From the NCBI GenBank assembly GCA_003971905.1, contig RSEE01000019.1, positions 310,001 through 374,000 of the forward strand: a DNA stretch of 64,000 bases, given 5' to 3'. The first letter of the stretch is position 1. Every line of letters starts with the position of its first letter. The notes beneath the pieces were generated by a model, which was not told the DNA's origin, did no database searches, and saw only the letters and a program-made list of their open reading frames with translations. This document shows positions 5,541-48,797 of this stretch, piece after piece. Made by a program: the position numbers and the translations under genes. The DNA comes from Moniliella sp. 'wahieum' (taxonomy: Eukaryota).

Positions 5541-8500
5541 ATGGCCGCCACATCCCGGTCCGACGGCAGCTACGTCCACCTCGATCACCTCTACGACTTC
5601 GACCTGCCCACCACGTCCTCCCCCGTCCCCGCCTCCATGACAACCGCCACCCGCCCCTGGTCCTCCATGCCGCGGCGGCCACCGCCGCTGCCGAGCCAAG
5701 CGCCACGGTTGCCATTCCCGTGCCTGTCGCCCCCTACGAGATTTGGATGGTGGCCCAGGCTCCAACGAGCAGTTTGCGCGTCTGCCCCCGTCCGTCGTGC
5801 TGCCCGAGGGCACCGACGCGCACGATGCTCAGGTCGTGCTCTGCGCCAACTTCCTCCGCTTCCTCGCCGACACCATCCACGCCCAGCGCGGCGCCCAAGC
5901 CGCTGATGTGCCTTCCGAGGTCAAGGTCCTGCAGCATGCTTGGTTTGCCTTCAACACTACCTTCCTGCACCTCGCCCCCACGGGCCAACCGGGAATGCAA
6001 TCGGTCGACGTGCACCACCTCACCGCTTCCCTCGACGTCGATGCCCGGACTGCCGTACTGCGCGCCTACCTCGACGCCTATGTCCTCCTTGATGCATTCA
6101 AGAACAAGGACCCGGCTCTGCGCGATATGCAGCTCCGACACCGCTTCTCTTGCGCCTGGCTCAGCAGGACAAGGCCAAGGTTTTTGGCGTCTTTGGTGGC
6201 CAAGGCACCAACGAGGTACGTCGGCTTTAAATAACTGCCCTGCCTCTCTTACTAACGTTATACCCCCCCCCCCCCCCACTTTTCCAGATCTACTTTGCCG
6301 AGCTTCAAGCCCTCTTCAACACGTACCGGCCACTCGTCGAGCCCGTGGTGCGCGATGCCTCTGCCCTGCTTGAGACACTCGTGGATGAGGCGCGTCAACA
6401 AGGCTTTGCGAACTTTTACTCCCAAGGCCTCGATGTTGCTGGGTGGTTGATGGGCACCACACCCCAACCCGACAATGCCTACTTTGTCCCTGCGCCCGTG
6501 TCGTTGCCGTTGATTGGTATGACCCAGCTGCTCCAGTACCTCTTGTGTGCCGTTGCTCGGGATTGAGCCCGGATGAGTTCCGTCGGACTTTCGTGGACAC
6601 TACCGGCCACTCGCAAGGTATCATCTCGGCCGTCGTTCTGTCTTCGTCCGATACGCCTGCTGCGCTTCACTCCAACATTGTGGCCGCCATCCGCTTGTTG
6701 TTCCACATTGGCAAGCGTGGCCAAGCGGCCTTCCCCTCGACCACGCTGGAGCCCAAGTTGGCCGACGACTCGGTTGCTGGCGGTGAGGGTGAGCCCACAC
6801 CCATGTTGTCAGTATCCGGCCTGAGGCGTGAGCAACTGGAAAAACACATTGAAATCACGAACTCGTTCTTGGAGGCCGACCGTCACGTGGCCATCTCTCT
6901 TTACAATGGCAAGCGCAACTTCACGGTCACGGGTTTCCCGCGCTCGCTCTTTGGTCTCGTTTCGTCTCTTCGCGAGATCCGTGCCCCAGAGGGTGCTGAC
7001 CAGACGAAGGTGCCATTCAGCCAGCGCAAGCCTGTCTTTAATGTTCGCTTCTTGCCCATATCAGTCCCCTACCACTCGGGTTACCTTACTGGTGTGACGG
7101 ACACATTGATCGGCGTTGATTACGCCCCCAATGAAGCTCCGTTTGAGCCTTCCAAGCTGGCGGTACGTGTAAGCAACACGACGACGGTTCGGATCTCCGT
7201 TCGCTCAAGGATGGGAGAGCCTTGCTTCGCTCCCTCTGCGATCAGATCTTCACCCAGCCTATCCACTGGGAGACGATTGTGCCCCCCGCTCCTGCGGTGA
7301 CGCACCTGATCGACTTCGGCACGGGCGGCATGTCGGGCATTGGCGTGCTTACAAGTCGCAACCTGGAGGGCAAGGGCGTCTATTCGCTCTTCCCCTCGGG
7401 ACGTCATGCCAAAGCGAGTGAACTGTACAATTTGACTCGGTGGGGCGGGAGGTTCGGTGGGCCCAGGCGTTTGCGCTCGGTTGGTCCGTACGCGTGAAGG
7501 CAAGTTGTTGTTGTGGACACGCCGATGTCTCGGTGCTGGGCAAGCCGCCACTGATGGTGCCGGGCATGACGCCCACCACGGTTCAAGCTGGTTTCAACAT
7601 TGCGACCATGAACGCCGGTTACCACATTGAGCTCGCCGGTGGTGGACACTTTACGCCCGCAGATGCTCCGTGAAAAGTGGAGGCCATCTCTCGGCCACCC
7701 GTGCTGGCGAAGGGCTGACGCTCAACTGTCTGTACATTAACCAGCGTCTGTGGAACGTCCAGTTCCCCTCTGGCAAGAGATGCGTCGTGAGGGCCTGCCT
7801 CTCCAAGGCTTCTGTGTCGCTGCCGGTATTCCAAGCCCCGAGAAGGCCAAAGAGATCATCGACTCGCTTCGTGCAAGTGGGATTGAGCATATCAGCTTCA
7901 AGCCTGGCTCGGTCGATGGCATCAAGCAAGTGTGCACTATTGCGGCAAAGAACCCGGACTTCTCGATTCTGCTCCAGTGGACTGGTGGTCGTGCTGGTGG
8001 TCACCACAGCTGTGAAGACTTCCACCAACCCATCTTGGCAACCTACGGCCGCATTCGTCAGCACCCCAACCTTGTTTTGGTCGCCGGCTCTGGCTTTGGT
8101 TCTGCCGAGATTTCTGGCCCTACCTCACAGGCGATGGTCGCGCGATCAGTTTGATGCCGAGCCCATGCCGTTCGATGGTGTCCTCTTTGGCTCCTGGGTC
8201 ATGACCGCAAAGGAAGGCCACGCCAACAACGAGATCAAGCAGCTGGTTGAGGCCAAGGGTGTCGAGGACAAGGAGTGGGAGGGCACCTTTACGCACCCCA
8301 CTGGTGGAATTGTGACTGTCACTTCGGAGCTGGGTGAGCCCATTCACAAGATTGCGACGCGTGGCATGAAGCTCTGGGCTGAGTTGGACAAGAAGTGCTT
8401 CACCCTGCCCAAGGAAAAGCGTCTGGCCTGGCTTGCCAAGAACAAGAACTGGGTTATTGAGCACCTCAATGCTGATTTCCAGAAACCCTGGTTCCCTGCT

Positions 8501-11500
8501 TATCTTGATGGAGAGCCAGCCCAAGGGGTGGAGGACATGACCTACGAGGAGACGATCCGTCGCGCTCTTCGCCTTCTCTACATTCAGGCCAAGCAGCGCT
8601 GGGTGGATGTGTCCTTGCGCAATTTCTTTGGCGATTGGCTGCGGCGAGTGGAGGAGCGTTTTGCCCACACACGGGCCAGCAAGCCTCTCTCCTGCAGTCC
8701 TACAGCCAATTGGACAAGGACCCAGCTGCGTTTGTCGACAAGTTTATCGGGGTCTTCCCTGAGACGACCGACATGCTCCTTTCGGCTGAAGATGTTGCGT
8801 ACTTTATTGTGCTGTGCAATCGCCCGACGCAGAAGCCCGTGCCCTTCATCCCCCTGTTGGACGCCAACTTTGCAGTGTACTTCAAGAAGGACTCGCTTTC
8901 GTACTCGGAGGACCTTGACTCGGTCTTTGACCGTGACCCTCAGCGGGTTGCCATTTTGCACGGCCCTGTCGCTGCTCGTCACAACACTCGTGCCAACGTC
9001 CCTATCAAGGAGATGCTTGGTGGTGTAGAGGACAAGCTTGTGGAGCTCATGCTTCAGCGCTTCTATGGCAACGACAAGAACAGTGTTCCCCAGGTGGATT
9101 ATCTGGCAAAGCACCCCTGGGTATTGATCTTGCGGAGCTTGCGGCGGCCCACAATGTGCGCGTTGACCAGGCGGAGAACAGGGTGGAACTTGGGTTGCCG
9201 TCCGATGTCAAGCAACTGCCTGAGCCGTCGCAGTGGTTGGATGCGTTGGCCGGGCAAGAGGCTTCTTGGCTGCGTGCTCTGCTCACCTCGGTCAGCTTGG
9301 TCCGTGGGCGGGGTACATTGACAACCCGCTTAAAACGCCTGCTCGCTCCCGGGCCAACCAGGTGGTGCAGCTTGCCCACGGTGCTGAAGGCCCTGAACGC
9401 CTGACTCTCTTGGGTGCCTACCGTTCCTACGGTCCGTCAGACAAGCACACCCCCATTGTCGACATCACCTTTGCGCCGGCCACCAAGGCCATCACTGTCG
9501 TTATCAACGAGCTTCGTCGCGGCGAGCTTGTGCCGCTTACGATGGAGTTTGTCTACCACCCGGAGCAACCGGGTGCTTTGATTCATGAGCGCCTCGAAGG
9601 GCGTGAGCGTCGTATCAAGAGTTCTACTGGAAGTACGTATATATTATTCATTCCGAAGCCGTTCTTATCTTGATCATCTGCTGACTTACCATTTCTCAAG
9701 GCTCTGGTTCAACGAAAATGCCCTCCTCGTCGGCTCTCGCTAGCAAGGAGGTGTTCTCCAATGAGCCCAAGACGCTCAATGGCGAGTCCATCCAAAAGTT
9801 CTGCCAGGTCGTGGGCAACAACAATGTTGTCTACCAGGTGGGTGGGCAAGCGCCTATGGACTTTGCCATTGTTGCTGGCTGGGAGGCCATCATGCAAGCC
9901 TTGACGGCGAAGATCGACGGTGACTTGCTTAACCTCGTGCATCTTAGCAACAGCTTCGAGATGGTTCCTGGCGCCTCTGGCCTCCGCGTGGGAGACAAGT
10001 GCAAGGCTGAGGCTCGGGTGCTGAGTGTCAGATCTCCGCCACTGGCAAGTCGGTTTCAATTCAAGGCAAGGTCCTGCGACAGGAGGCGAGGAGTGGAAGC
10101 CCGTTATTACGGTCGTATCTTCTTCTTCTACCGTGGCAAGTTCAGCGACTATGGCTCCTGCTTCGAACATCAGCGTGACCGCTATTCGTTTGAGATCAAG
10201 TCCAAGGCTGAGGCTGCTGTTCTGATGGCCAAGGAATGGTTCTCCTGGACCGCCCCCTCACCCCTCGAGTCGGGCACGGTGCTGTATTTCGATGTGGACA
10301 ACACTATGCGCTATCAAAACGCTACGACCTTGCTGATGTGCAGGCTCAGGGGGTGTCTATATCAAGGACTACAAGACGACCTTATCCAGGTGGGTGTGGT
10401 GGAATACGAAGCCGACTCGATCAGCTACGGCAACCCGTTTCTGAGTACATCAAGCGCGCGGTGGCAGCTCTCAGATGCCGCTGCGCCTCGACCATGGCTA
10501 CACCTTGAGGGCGAACGGACCTGAGCAAGTTTACTGCTCCGGCGACCAACGAGCCCTATTCCCTGGCGTCGGGTGACTTCAACCCCATCCACATCAACCC
10601 CTACTTGCCGACCTGGCTTCGCTCCCTGGTACCATTACCCACGGTCTCTTTTCGTCGGCGGCCACGCGCCGATTTGTGGAGGATATGGCGGGCGAGGGCC
10701 ATCCGATCGTGTCCTCTTTCAAGGCCCAGTTTGTTGGCATGGTCCTCCCCGGGGACGAGTTGACGGTTACTTTGCGCCACATCGCTATGCACGGCGGCAA
10801 TAAGGTCATTTCTGTCCAGACCGTCAACCAAGCGGGCGAGAAGGGCTCGAGGGCGAGGCTGAGGTGCCAGCCACCACGGCCTACGCATTACTGGGCAAGG
10901 CTCGCAAGAACAGGGGAGGGGATGGACTTGTACTCATCTTCGGACACGGCCAAGGCGCTCTGGGATGAAGCCGATCAGCACCTGAAGGCCACCATGGGCT
11001 TTAGCATCCTCGAAATTGTGAAGGACAACCCCATGAGCAAGACGGTGCACTTTGGCGGGTGTGCGCGGCATGCGATTCGCGACCGTACAGCAGCATGATG
11101 TACGAGTCGACGGATACTGAAGGCAAACCGGTCACCCTCCCGCTTTCCCTGAGATTACGCTGCGCTCGCAGAGCTACACCTTCCAATCGCCCAAGGGGCT
11201 TCTCTACGCCACTCAATTCGCGCAGATTGCGTTGGTGCTCGTGGAGCTGTCGCCTACCGCGATATGAAGGACCGTGGCCTGATCCGTCCGACTCGGCATT
11301 TGCCGGCCACTCGCTGGGCGAGTACGCTTCCCTGGCCGCTGTGGCCTCGGTGCTGCAAGTTAAGGACTTGGTCGATGTGGTCTTCTACCGTGGCCTGACC
11401 ATGCAGCGTGCCGTCAAGCGTGACGCCGAGGGTCGCAGCTCGTATGGTATGATGGCCTGCAACCCGACTCGTGTTGGCCCCTCCTTCTCGGACGCGGCCT

Positions 11501-13330
11501 TTGCCGAGGTGGTGGACTCGATCGGGCGCGTGTCGGGCAAGTTGATCCAAACTGTCAACTTCAACGTCTCGAGCCAGCAGCTGGTCGTTGCTGGTGAGCT
11601 GGTTGCACTTCTGACGATGACCAACGTGCTCAACTACATCAAGCTGCAGAAGATTGATCTCAACCGCTTGCTGGAGACGATGAGCCCCGAAGAGGTGCGA
11701 GAGAAGCTGGAGGAGATTGTCTCGATGGTGTTTGCTGAAGCGGAAAAGGAAGCTGCCAAGGCCCTCTCCAACTTCAACGCGGTTCGCCACCATCCCTCTG
11801 CCCGGTATTGATGTGCCCTTCCACTCGCGCTACCTTATGCCGGGTGTGGCCCCTTCCGTGCCTACCTCTCCAAGCGGATCAACGTGGATGCCATTCGTCC
11901 TAACCTGCTGGTGGGCAAGTACATTCCCAACTTGATTGCCCAGCCGTTTGAGCTTTCCAAGGCGTATGCGGAGACGATTGTCAACCAGACGGGCTCGGGT
12001 CGCTTGGCCAAGGTGGTCAAGGAGTGGGAGAAGGAGGGCTGGGCATCGCCGGAGAAGCAGCAGCGGCTGACAACGTTGTTGGTTGTTGAGCTCTTGGCTT
12101 ACCAGTTTGCTTCGCCGGTGCAGTGGATCAAAACGCAGGAGCTGCTGTTTGGCAAGCCCTTCCAGATGGAGCGCTTTATCGAGTTTGGCCCCAGCCCCAC
12201 CCTGAGGCATGGCGGTGCGAACCCACAAGGCATTCTACAAGGCGTCGGACGAGGCCCGTGGACTGCGCCGTGAGCTGCTTTGCTCTTCTAAGGACAAGGA
12301 AGCGCTCTACTATGCCTTCACCGACCCCGAGGCGGACGAGGCGCCGGTGCAACAGAGGAGGCGGCCCCTGCGCCCGTGGCTGCTGCACCTGTGGCTGTGG
12401 CCGCTCCCGTCGCCGCCGCGCCCGCTGCTGGTCCTACTCAGGAGGTGCCGACGAGCCGGTCAAGGCAATCGAGACGCTCATGTCCATCCTGGCTCAGAAA
12501 CTGAAGAAGCCGCTCGACTCGATTCCCAAGGACAAGGCCATCAAGGAAATGGTCGGAGGCAAGTCGACGATGCAAAATGAGATTGTGTCGAGCCTGATCG
12601 AAGAGTTTGGCATGGTCCCCGACCGTGGAGAAGAACTGCCGGTGGAAGAGCTGGGCGCCGCGCTTCAGATTGGGTACAAGGGGACTCTGGGCAAGTACAC
12701 CTCGGGCCTCGTGTCGCGGTTTGTGGCGTCCAAGATGCCTGGTGGCTTCAACCTGTCGGCCGTCAAAGCGCACCTGTCCAATCGTGGGGGTTGGGTGCCG
12801 GACGGAGCGAGTCGGTGCTGCTAGCGGCTGTGGCTGACGAGCCGGCCAAGCGGTTGGGGTCTGAGGGCGAGGCCAAGGCCTGGCTCGACTCGGTTGTCCA
12901 GGGCTACGGAAGGCGGTCGGGTGTCTCCTTGAGCCAGGGCGGCGGTGCGCGGGCGGTGGTGCTGCGACGGGCGGGGCGGCAATCTCGTCGGAGGAGCTGG
13001 ACAAGCTGCGCGATGCAGAGCACCAACATGCTCGGCGGCAGATTCAGCTGCTGCAGCGCTACCTGGGTGTGGACGCGCGGGCCGAGGGTCGCGCTACGGA
13101 TGCGGTTCGCTCGGAACTGGCGCAGGCCCAGGCTGAGCTGGATGCGATTGCGGCCGAGCATGGCGAGCTGTACACGAACGGCATCCGCCCAAGTTTGATG
13201 CGCGCAAGGTGCGCACCTACTCTTCTTCGTGGAACTGGAGCCGGCAGCAGGCGCTCCTGCTTTACTATGACATTCTCAAGGCCGTCTGGGGCTGGAGAAT
13301 GGGCGGCTGACGTCGCTGGAGCACGAGTAA
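5541..13330 (+). CDS. FAS1: Fungal type I fatty acid synthase, beta-type chain AT-ER-DH-MPT-ACP (no KR/KS/PPT); introns 6216-6287 and 9633-9700; many frameshifts
   Basis: FGGQG and GHSQG (AT); GGRAGGHHS and [16 protein letters not shown] (ER); SGDFNPIH (DH); FAGHSLGEY and PGIDVPFHS (MPT); [21 protein letters not shown] site [11 protein letters not shown]; then [19 protein letters not shown] and a TAA at 13328-13330 after one frameshift correction. Confidence 0.93.
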
Positions 13331-13907
13331 GGCGGCTGCCCGTGGCAGCGATGATGGGTTTCGACGTGTGGTTAGGAATATCATGGCATGTGGTTCGGAC
13401 TGCTGGAGATGTTGCATAGAGGTGGATCTCAGGTAGGATGCGGCTCCGAGCCAAGGGAGGCAAAGGGAACAGGCAGTGAGCGACTGGGGAGGATGAGACC
13501 AGCTTCCAGTCAAACTGAATAACCCAAGTGGGAGGTGTAGTGTAGTGGGAGGTGTGCAGAGGACATATGAGTCTATGGCGTGGGGGCCCCATGGCCTCAC
13601 GCGGTGAATCGGTACCCTGCCCTGCGCATGCCGGCGCACGGTGGGTGAAACGTTGAAAACAAGCCAGTGCAGAAGGATTAGAAATGGCACACTGCCCCCC
13701 CGGCGGCCGCCCGTCGAGACGCACCCCTTCGCCGCAGAGGGGCAGCGCCTGTGTGGCCTGCTGCGTTCCCAGCACCGGCTGGGGAGCAGTGTCCAGCCCA
13801 GCGGCCGAGCCGGGTGGGGCCGGGCCAGGCGGCCGGACGGATAGCCGCTGCTTGCTTCTGCGTCGCGCTCCACCACCCCCCTCCCCACCCTTCTTGCCCC
13901 CTCCAGC

Positions 13908-14602
13908 ATGAACTCGATCCGCACCGTTGGTCTGTCGCACTCGATCCTGGCGCGCCGCGTGCTTGTTGGGGCTGGTGCTGGGGCGCGTGTGGCCGCCGTG
14001 CGCCCGCTCGCGCTGGCGCCCCTCCTGGCTCGCCCGCTCTCGACCCAGACGCCAGCCAAGAAGCCCATTGCGATCCAGGAGTTGTCCCCGGCCCAGGAGC
14101 TGCAGCAGCTCGATGGCCAGCGCAACCGCCGTCCCACTTCGCCTCATCTCGATATCTACCAGCCGCAGCTGACCTGGCTCATGTCGGGTCTGCACCGTGC
14201 CACGGGTGTGCGACTGTTGGCAGTACGTCCTGCTTTCCTCCTTCTGTTTGGCGGGCCTTGCTGTTCTCCTGTGCCTCTGCCTCCCCCCCCTCCCTACCCC
14301 CATGACTAACGTTACCGTTACTTCAGTTCTGTACGCCTACTCGATTGTCTATGGCTTTCGCCCTGTTTGGTGTGCAGGAATACGTTTCGCCGGAGGTGGT
14401 TGCGATTGCGGGCTCGCTGCCGTTCTGGTTCAAGACGCTTGTCAAGGCCCCGCTGGCTGCCGTGGTGAGCTTCCATGCGTTCAACGGTCTGCGCCACCTG
14501 CTGTGGGACACGGCCGTGCTGACCATCCCGGGCGTGTACAAGACCGGGTACGCGGTTCTCGGCGCGACGGCGCTGTCGACGATCGCTTTGCTTTTGGTGT
14601 AA
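13908..14602 (+). CDS. SDH3: Succinate dehydrogenase cytochrome b560 subunit; intron ~14223-14326, small frameshifts
   Basis: Arg/Ala-rich mitochondrial presequence, QRNRRPTSPHLDIYQPQLTWLMSGLHRATG, FHAFNGLRHLLWD, VYKTGYAVLG. Confidence 0.92.
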
Positions 14603-15564
14603 AGTGGCGCGTCGGATGGTATGGTATGTCCATGTGATCTATGAATGTGCGCAAGGGATCTGTAGACTGCATACGACACGTTCCCCTAGGTGCCGATGGC
14701 TCTCACGACGGTGGCGCTCATGAGGCCTGCGAGAGATTGAGCCCAGGGGCTAGCAAAACGGACCTGCATGGCAGGGCGAGGCGGTACGGAAGCAGAGGCC
14801 AGTGGGCATTTCAACCTCGGACGAAAGTGAGAGCGAGACGCGTACGAGAAAACGTGGAGGGATGACGGAGCAGTAGAGTTGAATGGGGCAAGCGGTGCCA
14901 ACCTGTTTCCCAAGTTTGGGCATCGATGTGATGGGGTAAAAAAGATGTTGGTTGGAGGACAACGTTGCTCGTGGCTGCTGGCCCTACACTTACTACTCCT
15001 CGTCGCCGCTGGATATTGAATGGTTTTTTGCCATAGACTGCCCTCCAGTCTACTACACACTGACAAGTGGCATGTGCCAGTTGGAATGCTGAATGCTGCT
15101 GGAAATGCCACACACCGAGAGAGAGTTCGCGACGGTGAACAGAGGGAGATGCGAGAGAGCAATAGATGAGAGATGATACGTCGACGTGGGTGAAGCATTC
15201 CATGACGGTACCGCAGATAGATGAACGACCTTAAACACGTCTCGCCCGGGCCAGCACGACTTTTTAGAGTAGTATAGGTTCCGGTTCCACTGGCTTCAAG
15301 ATTGTTGTTGTGTCCTTTGTTTCGTCCTTGTTTCGTTTGGTTCGATGAATTGAGATTGGCTTCCTCTAAAATAGACCTTTTCGATCTGCGATAGCAAACC
15401 ATAGTAGGAAGCCATAGTATGACAAGCGACAATGAATACACGGAGCCCCATCATCGTAGACGGTATGCGCTTTTCTATCCTCTCACGACCTGAAAGATAG
15501 CCAAACACATCCGTGGCACCACTTTTCATGGTAAGCAGCCATATACCCCTCTGAGGTCAGGACC

Positions 15565-45341: not shown

Positions 45342-46489
45342 AGTCGCATGCATTATTTTTATTGAGGAGGAGAGTGCCGATATTCTTCCCTTCCTCATCG
45401 TTCTCTTTCACTTATTGGCTTTCCCACCACGATTCTGCTCCTATGCCCTTTTCGTGTGCCCTGCTTTCTCAGCTACCTTGCAACTCTCAGGCACATTACC
45501 TATGTGTGCTGAGTCCTGGTTGGAGTTGGGCGGTTTTCGGACTCTTTTCTCCTTTTTTGGGGTTTTGTTTTCTACCTTCGTCTTTCGTTTGCGAGATATC
45601 CGAGAGGTCCCACCTCTCTTATTGTCAGACTGGCCCCAAAAACTTGGTTCTCTATTGCTTTCATGCGGTAAACGGGGTCGTTTTTTTGCCCTGGTGCGGT
45701 GCACCTTGTGAGAATTTCCCTCCCCGGTCGTCTCCCCGACTTGATGTATTATCTCTTCCCCTACTCCCTCTCGTCTTTGGGTTCTACTCTCCTACTCCGG
45801 TTATTCTCCTACTCCGGTTATGAATCGCTAGTACCACCCCCCACTGCTATCTCACATCGTGACGGGATACGTAGTAGAGGGATGCTTTCCTTCTCACATG
45901 GAGTATATTCGGTGGACGTGGCGGGCTCCTTTCATAGTCTGCGGGACCAATGGTGTCCTCAAGACGCTGAAGACGGTGAAGGTGCTGGTATTCTTTCGGG
46001 CTTCGCGCGTTTACCGGATTATAGTGGTGCCCACCAAAAAATTCGCGAAATGAGGTAGATTTGTGCTACTTTAATTAGTGCGCCAACGTGGTGCGTGGAC
46101 TTGCTCACTGAGATCACCGACGGTCGATGATGCTTAGCTCAGCTCCTCCCTCGGACATGGTGCGGTAGAAGCGGAGAAAACACTGGACGTCGATCGAAAT
46201 GGCCGGCCACGTAGGCTGTTGGCAGTGAGCGTAGTGAGCATTACCAATAGGCTGCCCTTGCACTGCTCCTGTGCCACGTGGTTTATCCCCAAGGTTTTGT
46301 TCGGACTTGATACGCCTCATGCTTCAAGCTTCACTCACCGCTTCAAGCTCCAAGTTTCAGAGCATGTCTTCTCCGTGCCTTCCCCTGCGCCGCTATTTCC
46401 GCGTCGGCTTTTCAATGCTCCCTCCAAGACGACACCTTTTCCACCCTTCCACCGTCTGACACTTCCTTTCCCCCCCCCCCATCTCCACC

Positions 46490-48797
46490 ATGGCGCCGCG
46501 CACCCTCTACCAGAAGATCTTTGACGACCATCTCATCCGGGAGGAGGAAGATGGCACCTGCCTTATCTACATTGACCGCCACCTTGTCCATGAGGTAACT
46601 TCGCCGCAGGCATTCGAAGGCCTGCGTCTCGCAAATCGTCCTGTGCGTCGCACCGACTGCACTCTCGCCACTGTCGACCACAACATTCCTACTAGCAGCA
46701 GGAAAAAGTACGTGGACACGGCCTCGTTTATCGAAGAACCCAGCTCGCGCACCCAAGTCGTCACCCTCGAGCACAATGTCAAGGAATTCGGCCTTACCTT
46801 CTTTGGCATGACCGACGATCGACAAGGCATTGTCCATGTCATTGGCCCCGAGCAGGGCTTTACCCTCCCTGGTGCTACAATTGTCTGCGGTGATTCGCAC
46901 ACCTCTACCCATGGCGCCTTTGGTGCGCTAGCCTTTGGCATTGGTACCTCCGAAGTGGAACACGTCCTCGCGACGCAGACCATCATCCAAAAGCGGGCCA
47001 AAAACATGCGCGTCCAAGTCGATGGCGAGCTTGCGCCTGGAGTCAACTCGAAGGACATTGTTCTTCATGTTATTGGACTTATTGGTACCGCGGGGGGCAC
47101 TGGGAGCGTGATTGAATTTTGCGGGACGACAATTGAGAAGCTGTCGATGGAGGCGCGCATGTCGATCTGCAACATGTCTATTGAGGGAGGCGCACGTGCC
47201 GGTCTCATTGCTCCCGATGAGGTCACATTTGCGTACTTGAAGAACCGCCCGCTCGCTCCCAAGGGCGAAGAGTGGGAGAAGGCGGTGGCATACTGGAAGT
47301 CACTTCCTTCCGACCCAGACGCCAAGTACGATGTGGTGGTCAAGATTGATGCTAAGGACATTCCTCCCACTGTCACCTGGGGCACCTCGCCTCAGGATGC
47401 GATCAGTATTACCGCATCGGTTCCCGACCCGGCCAAGGCTAAGGACGAGACACAAGCTGCTGCCTGGAAGCGCTCACTAGCCTACATGGGTCTCGAGCCT
47501 AACACGCCCATGGAGCAAATCAAAATCCACAAGGTTTTTATCGGTTCGTGCACCAACTCGCGTATTGAGGATCTGCGCAGCGCCGCTCAGGTGCTCCATG
47601 GCCGCAAAGTGGCGGAGGGAGTGTACGCCATGCTCGTGCCCGGATCGGGCTTGATCAAGAAGCAAGCCGAGGCTGAGGGCCTGGACAAGGTGTTCAAGGC
47701 GGCTGGGTTTGACTGGCGCGAGGCTGGCTGCTCCATGTGTCTGGGCATGAACCCGGACCAGCTCGAGCCTGGGGAACGCTGCGCCTCTACATCCAACCGT
47801 AACTTTGAGGGCCGGCAGGGACCTGGGGGTCGCACTCACCTCGTCTCTCCTGCCATGGCTGCCGCTGCGGCTGTGACGGGGCATCTGACTGATGTGCGTA
47901 CTCTCCTTGCCGGCTCGCCCAAGACTGCCGCGGCTCATGCCCAAGTGGAGATCCTGGACGGCAAGACCTTCCTTCCCCCTGCGGAGGCCCCACCCACCCC
48001 ACAGCCGGAGGAGCCGCAGGCCCCTGTGGATGCACCCCCGAGTCAAACGGATGAGGACTGTTTGGAGGATGTACCAATCAGTATGGAGACCACGGCAGGC
48101 AGTGGACTCAAAACGTTCACCACCCTCTCAGGCATTGCAGCCCCGATTGAGCGGGCCAATGTGGACACGGACTTGATTATCCCAGCCAAATTCCTCAAGG
48201 TGATCACTCGTTCGGGTTTGGGAGGAGCACTGCTCAATACTCTCCGCTACAACAAGGACACTGGGGCGCCAAACCCCGATTTTGTCCTCAATCAAGAGCC
48301 CTGGTCACATGCCAAGTTTATTGTGGCCGGGCCTAACTGGGGCTGTGGTTCGTCGCGTGAGCATGCGGCCTGGTCCTTGCTTGACTTTGGCATCCGTGCC
48401 GTCATTGCGCCTTCAATCGCCGATATTCACGCCACCAACCTGTCTAAGAATGGGATTGTGGGTGTTGTCCTTCCCCAAGAACAAGTGGACCGGGTTATGG
48501 CGGATGCCAAGGCTGCCAAGACGGTGACGGTGGATCTACCGAACCAGGTGGTGGTACTCGAGGACGGTTCTAGTTAGTTTCCCCTTCTCCATCTCGCCAT
48601 TTACCAAGCACTGTCTTATCAATGGTTTGGACGACATTAGTCTCACCCTCCAGCACGAGAAGTCTATCGAGTCCTTTGAGAAGACGCGCTCTTTGAAGTA
48701 CCCTTGGCTCAATGGCGTGGGCTACAAGGGCCCCGGCCCCAAAGCCATTCCTATCATCTCGGGCGATGCTGTCAAGAAACAAAAAATTGACTGGTAA
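46490..48797 (+). CDS. LEU1: 3-isopropylmalate dehydratase (fused large and small subunit); interrupted by a 4-bp duplication at 48571-48578
   Basis: [93 protein letters not shown]; the continuation [15 protein letters not shown]...KKQKIDW* is in the shifted frame. Confidence 0.97.

Follow-up and report, generated by a model that had tools for sequence, protein, structure and literature searches.

Four topologies of fungal type I fatty acid synthase (FAS) are recognised by Fischer et al. 2020 (PMC6972935), a scheme in which every cut site belongs to a single lineage and FAS of the smut type forms one chain. In the Tremellomycetes type, the cut falls within the 4-helix bundle. According to the same paper, yeast FAS engineered with the Tremellomycetes cut assembles and complements (section 6), while assembly and complementation are lost upon deletion of the first alpha helices in the engineered enzyme; co-translational pairing of split chains is considered plausible there and in its preprint (10.1101/336578). 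Xanthophyllomyces has two FAS genes, whose ids lie far from each other (PMC4393869). Here we describe a FAS beta gene from Moniliella sp. 'wahieum', located in a window of 64,000 nucleotides (C19:310001-374000, where C19 is contig RSEE01000019.1) of a 69.5 Mb assembly in 223 contigs, together with its alpha partner genes on other contigs. Judged from their sequences, the two very probably constitute a two-gene fungal type I FAS that underwent fission independently of the Tremellomycetes, within the same D-R-E loop, in a common ancestor of this fungus and Tilletiaria anomala.

Pfam matches between 5541 and 13330 of the window occur in the order FAS_N (under the Pfam cut-off), SAT/AT, ER-helical, meander, DH/MaoC, Acyl_transf_1, Fas_alpha_ACP and FAS_I_H, with Sdh_cyt following. 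The gene starts at one of two candidate ATGs (5541 or 5638), ends at a TAA at 13328-13330 and comprises about 2,570 codons once two introns are removed. The two MPT halves, placed by ascomycetes on separate genes, are contiguous. SDH3, an unrelated neighbour, bounds the gene 577 bp downstream. The first-pass annotation had described a FAS chain that runs through the ACP and stops before KR/KS/PPT, with the MPT halves and the ACP in one gene; the domain series and the stop codon bear this out, and the motifs it quoted, including GGKSTMQNE, were all found, in shifting frames. Its distance of about 580 bp to SDH3, leaving no room for KR-KS-PPT, agrees with our measurement, its estimate of about 2,550 codons was near, and its gene reading required correction for the two introns. 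It also placed the partner gene outside the window: tblastn of the whole window with the alpha chains of T. anomala and Cryptococcus neoformans gave no match at E<=0.01.

A second copy of the beta gene, on contig C14, is 97% identical to the window over 11500-15000. Its junction is the same as that on C19, with a single uncorrected frame through the beta end and SDH3 next downstream, which argues that the beta end is no misjoin peculiar to C19. The one base that the first-pass annotation restored at the gene end was correct, because C14 reads the same end in one frame without correction. Alignment of the two copies revealed 110 mismatches and a series of gaps, almost all just 1-2 bases long, of which 53 lie in the window and 22 in C14, while a base missing at 11287 is supplied by near-identical public contigs. 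The frame breaks in the window copy look like sequencing errors.

The missing KR/KS/PPT part, for which a search of the whole assembly had been proposed, was found on four other contigs. A genome search with PF18314 showed the profile to be cut in two: the window gene carries positions 3-91, and C16, C4, C43 and C120 carry the part from 92 onward. On each of these contigs the alpha gene has its own ATG after non-coding DNA (C16 start: MSSPAAAASWHDGPSSALSRELT) and runs on through KR, KS and PPT. Frame-aware alignment gave zero stop codons across 1,360-1,366 residues, with frame slips whose positions mostly differ between copies and an identity of 75-76% with the T. anomala protein, and the six catalytic motifs checked in KR, KS and PPT are present in all four copies. 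Taken together, the beta and alpha genes hold all eight fungal type I FAS domains in canonical order, with the AT GHS, MPT GHS, ACP Ser, KR Tyr, KS Cys-His-His and PPT motifs all present. The alpha and beta genes are unlinked and lie on separate contigs; no beta-like sequence was seen in the 20-30 kb around the alpha genes. A divergent ELO/GNS1-SUR4 elongase gene lies upstream of alpha, at a distance of about 1.1 kb, in all four copies (on C16, L010:3351-4220, minus strand), and this head-to-head pair possibly shares a promoter.

In yeast Fas2 coordinates, beta homology extends to 425 and alpha homology begins at 427; the RE occupies about 430-431, and the cut corresponds to about 429-431, within the bundle's D-R-E loop. 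Homology had been thought to end at KGRL, a view overturned by the last nine residues of beta: GRLTSLEHE matches the linker GRLT[AT]VDRE of 23/23 uncut basidiomycete-like proteins, with none of 10,000 random draws reaching its score (the six residues following GRL, taken alone, give P ~0.001-0.002). The match places the end of beta at the E of DRE, with alpha resuming at its R. A different register, in which the beta tail runs ungapped into the next helix, had to be rejected (P 0.37), unlike the one anchored on the second GRL, which fits. What is new in the tail is the 7-residue repeat GRLGLEN only. The proposal that the tail is a new chain-docking element is thus weakened for GRLTSLEHE, the homolog of the linker in uncut FAS, and survives for the repeat, which is new and may have a docking role given its conservation in relatives. 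Across ten codons of the tail, contigs of related organisms from sequencing runs X2 and X3 (about 80% alike) carry six synonymous and no amino-acid changes. The alpha leader was also considered as a decayed copy of the linker, and its likeness was marginal (P ~0.03, chosen post hoc); none of the nine Tremellomycete leaders tested was significant.

Proteins from Tilletia, Ceraceosorus, Sympodiomycopsis, Microstroma, Agaricomycetes, Rhodotorula and ascomycetes continue across the cut site. A metagenome scan of 56 loci, 51 of them with a readable WNW motif, yielded no split-type end (one contig end, one intron and two stop-riddled copies were seen), and the best 150 of 563 matches in a search of representative proteins included no identifiable complete split-type beta end. 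A complex prediction with the C-terminal 116 residues of beta and the N-terminal 180 residues of alpha, run without alignments, scored 0.00 and supports neither side.

Among database proteins, the best match for the N-terminus of alpha is a 1382-residue protein of T. anomala UBC 951 (KDN47731.1; Georgefischeriales, Exobasidiomycetes), which stands as the nearest sampled relative only and not as an assignment to order. Its alpha start lies at the same place, and the leader WxDGPSSALSRELT is held in common. All 11 Tremellomycete alpha chains retrieved, from named species of Cryptococcus, Tremella, Naematelia, Dioszegia, Cryptotrichosporon, Trichosporon, Cutaneotrichosporon and Apiotrichum, start 9-13 residues before RE[LI]T and have an unrelated leader. 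In an alpha tree of 27 rows and 1331 columns, with 11 partial or redundant rows left out, the Moniliella and T. anomala proteins are sisters (100/100) within a 100/100 clade that includes Sympodiomycopsis, Microstroma and further relatives, and the Tremellomycetes form a separate 100/100 clade. Constraining the nine split rows to one clade lowers the log-likelihood by 303 units and is rejected by the approximately unbiased (AU) test (p-AU 1.6e-37); at least two changes between split and uncut states are needed on this tree. The beta tree places the window gene in the Exobasidiomycetes (100/100). By the grouping of both its chains with Exobasidiomycetes, the organism is a smut relative and not a Tremellomycete, and the shared start and leader indicate that it and T. 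anomala almost certainly descend from one fission event. The first-pass annotation had left the choice between a Tremellomycete-type split whose two genes are unlinked and an independent fission; the outcome combines the two, since the Tremellomycete cut point and the unlinked partner stand and the Tremellomycete lineage, by the trees and the AU test, does not.

The gene ends, the partner genes, the complementarity of their domains, the intact alpha catalytic motifs and the phylogeny are direct observations, and two independent fissions at one point are the simplest reading. Several points weigh against it. The evidence is DNA and protein sequence alone, a beta end at the cut was seen in this genome only, and the same-site comparison with Tremellomycetes and T. 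anomala depends on alpha starts. A search of sequencing runs listed no RNA run for this organism, and the window copy is riddled with frameshifts. On the beta side, the gene branches as sister to the remaining Exobasidiomycetes (85/94) and not from within them, and the cost of an old split followed by re-fusions is thereby slightly lowered; the trees sample few Exobasidiomycete orders, without a named primary Ustilago FAS, and the change counts are blind to the direction of gain versus loss. Such an old split, in the common ancestor of Tremellomycetes and Ustilaginomycotina and followed by re-fusions in Agaricomycetes, the Ustilago lineage and other Exobasidiomycetes, would explain the identical cut residue in both groups. 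Single-chain FAS is functional in natural and engineered forms (PMC6972935), and the AU test, which rejects monophyly of the split genes, leaves a history of re-fusion unrejected. We nevertheless consider it improbable: it requires at least three precise re-fusions against two fissions, the linkers of uncut proteins are scar-free, with GRL/GEL...DR[ED] spacing constant in 23/23 basidiomycete proteins and the linker shared by ascomycetes, Mucor and Entomophthora, and the two split groups have alpha leaders that bear no relation to each other (WxDGPSSALS here, MD[QK]ESIVR-like in Tremellomycetes).

The remaining explanations fare worse. Horizontal acquisition of the split genes from a Tremellomycete would also yield the same cut point and is scarcely credible, being refuted for alpha by the tree and the AU test and at odds with an Exobasidiomycete-like beta. 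An indel-rich assembly with decayed FAS 3' remnants beside SDH3 on C127 and C198 might raise the suspicion that the gene was truncated by misassembly or is a pseudogene, and that the true FAS is single-chain. The identical junction on C14, the separate ATG in four alpha copies, the same alpha start in T. anomala, the purely synonymous changes in the relatives' tail and the failure of genome searches to find another ER or ACP copy make this very unlikely. Equally little credence attaches to trans-splicing of two transcripts into one mRNA: a Rhodotorula-like uncut gene does have an intron a few codons before the loop, but a conserved beta coding tail with its stop and a conserved alpha ATG leader would then be superfluous.

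In this organism, the beta C-terminus and alpha N-terminus would intertwine and rebuild the 4-helix bundle in trans, probably during translation. The PPT on alpha would activate the ACP on beta in trans, before barrel closure, and the product would be a standard alpha6-beta6 barrel, as in the engineered Tremellomycetes-type yeast FAS. Fission may have proceeded through a small duplication and then reciprocal loss, a route that fits the retention of RE on both chains; a stop and a new start arising within the loop is an alternative origin with a similar expected outcome. It is conceivable, though on balance doubtful, that the D-R-E loop is a recurrent fission hotspot, cut in two basidiomycete subphyla by small duplications that left linker on both chains, that GRLGLEN and WxDG form a lineage-specific docking pair, and that smut relatives hold further cut sites. 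The last part is suggested by several Exobasidiomycete proteins that begin inside the MPT, so that more cut sites may have gone unreported. Were this so, the class would be a natural series of FAS fissions.

Genome searches, whose copy counts are lower bounds, gave two full beta copies only (C19 and C14), and a genome-wide search for the ER and ACP domains found no copy beyond the known beta copies. C127 and C198 carry decayed, internally deleted beta remnants, consisting of the FAS 3' part adjoining SDH3 (L022, L024); the alpha genes of that copy set look intact, and two kinds of alpha chain may share a single kind of beta chain as partner. The four alpha copies fall into two pairs, with DNA identity of 95% within pairs (flanks included) and 91% between pairs (coding DNA only). 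For the LEU1-like aconitase-family gene (window 46460-48577), six matches were found, grouped as three pairs (98-100%, 83-84% and 68-70%, the last partial), and PRP21, upstream of FAS beta, has two only. From these uneven counts we infer a hybrid or polyploid genome with uneven gene loss; alternatively, a LEU1 paralog is involved.

Table 1. Coordinates of features of the FAS beta locus in the window.
Feature	Position	Strand	Basis
FAS beta gene (AT-ER-DH-MPT-ACP + first half of 4-helix bundle)	5541..13330	+	Pfam, alignment to C14 copy
Intron 1 (GTACGT...CTAAC...CAG)	6216..6287	+	predicted from sequence
AT active-site motif GHSQG	6605..6619	+	PF16073 match
ER helical region (PF08354), spread over three frames	7963..9018	+	
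Intron 2, splicing to YWKLW	9633..9700	+	predicted from sequence
DH / MaoC-like region	9750..10835	+	PF13452, PF22235, PF01575
Complete MPT, GHSLG at 11305	10913..12130	+	
Single ACP (PF18325 positions 2-162); GGKST motif, Ser codon 12564-12566	12450..12931	+	
First half of FAS_I_H / 4-helix bundle (profile positions 3-91; yeast Fas2 ~335-425)	13015..13280	+	
C-terminal tail: GRL-GLEN repeat, GRLTSLEHE, stop 13328-13330	13281..13330	+	
SDH3 (succinate dehydrogenase cytochrome b)	13908..14602, ATG 13908, intron 14223-14326	+	PF01127

Several further observations were made on the sequences compared here. The SDH3 intron is absent from the X2 and X3 contigs, which carry an intron-less form, so these unlabelled runs may be RNA. 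The same contigs, from one study, end 77 and 83 letters past 13281, which we do not take as evidence of a transcript end. Near the cut site, the Rhodotorula-like uncut FAS gene (L093:490-590) has its intron just before FGRLTTVDR, and a 3704-residue 'FAS2' of Ustilago maydis (P0400) spans the site with a divergent linker and seemingly lacks the usual C-terminal PPT-like end. Four Exobasidiomycete-like proteins (P0027 from Ceraceosorus bombacis, P0030, P0031 and P0032) begin at one shared Met in the MPT (MS[IV]LQKADP), representing either a further unreported split or a common gene-calling artefact. Microstromatales-like proteins of about 1,940-2,030 residues (P0028 from Sympodiomycopsis, P0034 from Microstroma, P0003, P0033, P0035 and P0036) start at varying MPT Mets, possibly through a split or an upstream annotation break. 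The KS search also returned a non-reducing polyketide synthase-like gene (SAT-KS-AT; L001, C48:151005-154745).

The architecture itself is known and workable in yeast; it has probably been reached here a second time at the same residue, and this second origin appears new. Searches of the accessible literature, which excludes most subscription papers, among them FAS-evolution surveys that may note the T. anomala split, turned up no description of smut relatives with a split FAS. Two independent cuts at one residue suggest that this intertwined 2.6 MDa machine can be broken at few positions only, and they offer a natural replicate of how unlinked genes re-establish co-translational assembly. The enzyme chemistry is ordinary; the cut marks a site that tolerates new termini, which is useful for FAS engineering.

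Set against the published types, the Moniliella FAS resembles the Ascomycota type in having two genes, but that type is cut inside the MPT, whose halves are contiguous here. The Rhodosporidium type likewise has two genes and is cut after the ER in the SBS sheet (PMC6972935), whereas ER, meander and DH are contiguous on this beta gene. Nearest by sequence are the Ustilaginomycetes-type single-chain FAS (PMC6972935) and uncut Exobasidiomycete FAS, which share the placement of the MPT halves and the ACP on one chain; those proteins cross the D-R-E loop, while this FAS is cut there and its domains are divided between two polypeptides. T. anomala KDN47731.1 is alike in alpha start, leader and sister position, and is annotated as a 'thiolase-like protein' rather than as part of a split FAS. 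The Tremellomycetes type (Fischer et al. 2020, PMC6972935; Cryptococcus neoformans, Tremella, Trichosporon) is alike in having two genes, with AT-ER-DH-MPT-ACP and half of the 4-helix bundle on beta and the other bundle part with KR-KS-PPT on alpha, and in alpha homology that starts at RE[LI]T. The two differ in subphylum and clade, in the alpha leader, which has 18-19 residues here and 9-13 unrelated residues there, and in gene location, on separate contigs here, whereas consecutive accessions in Cryptococcus suggest adjacency. The Moniliella enzyme thus has the 4-helix-bundle cut and the alpha starting residue of the Tremellomycetes type in a fungus of other descent.

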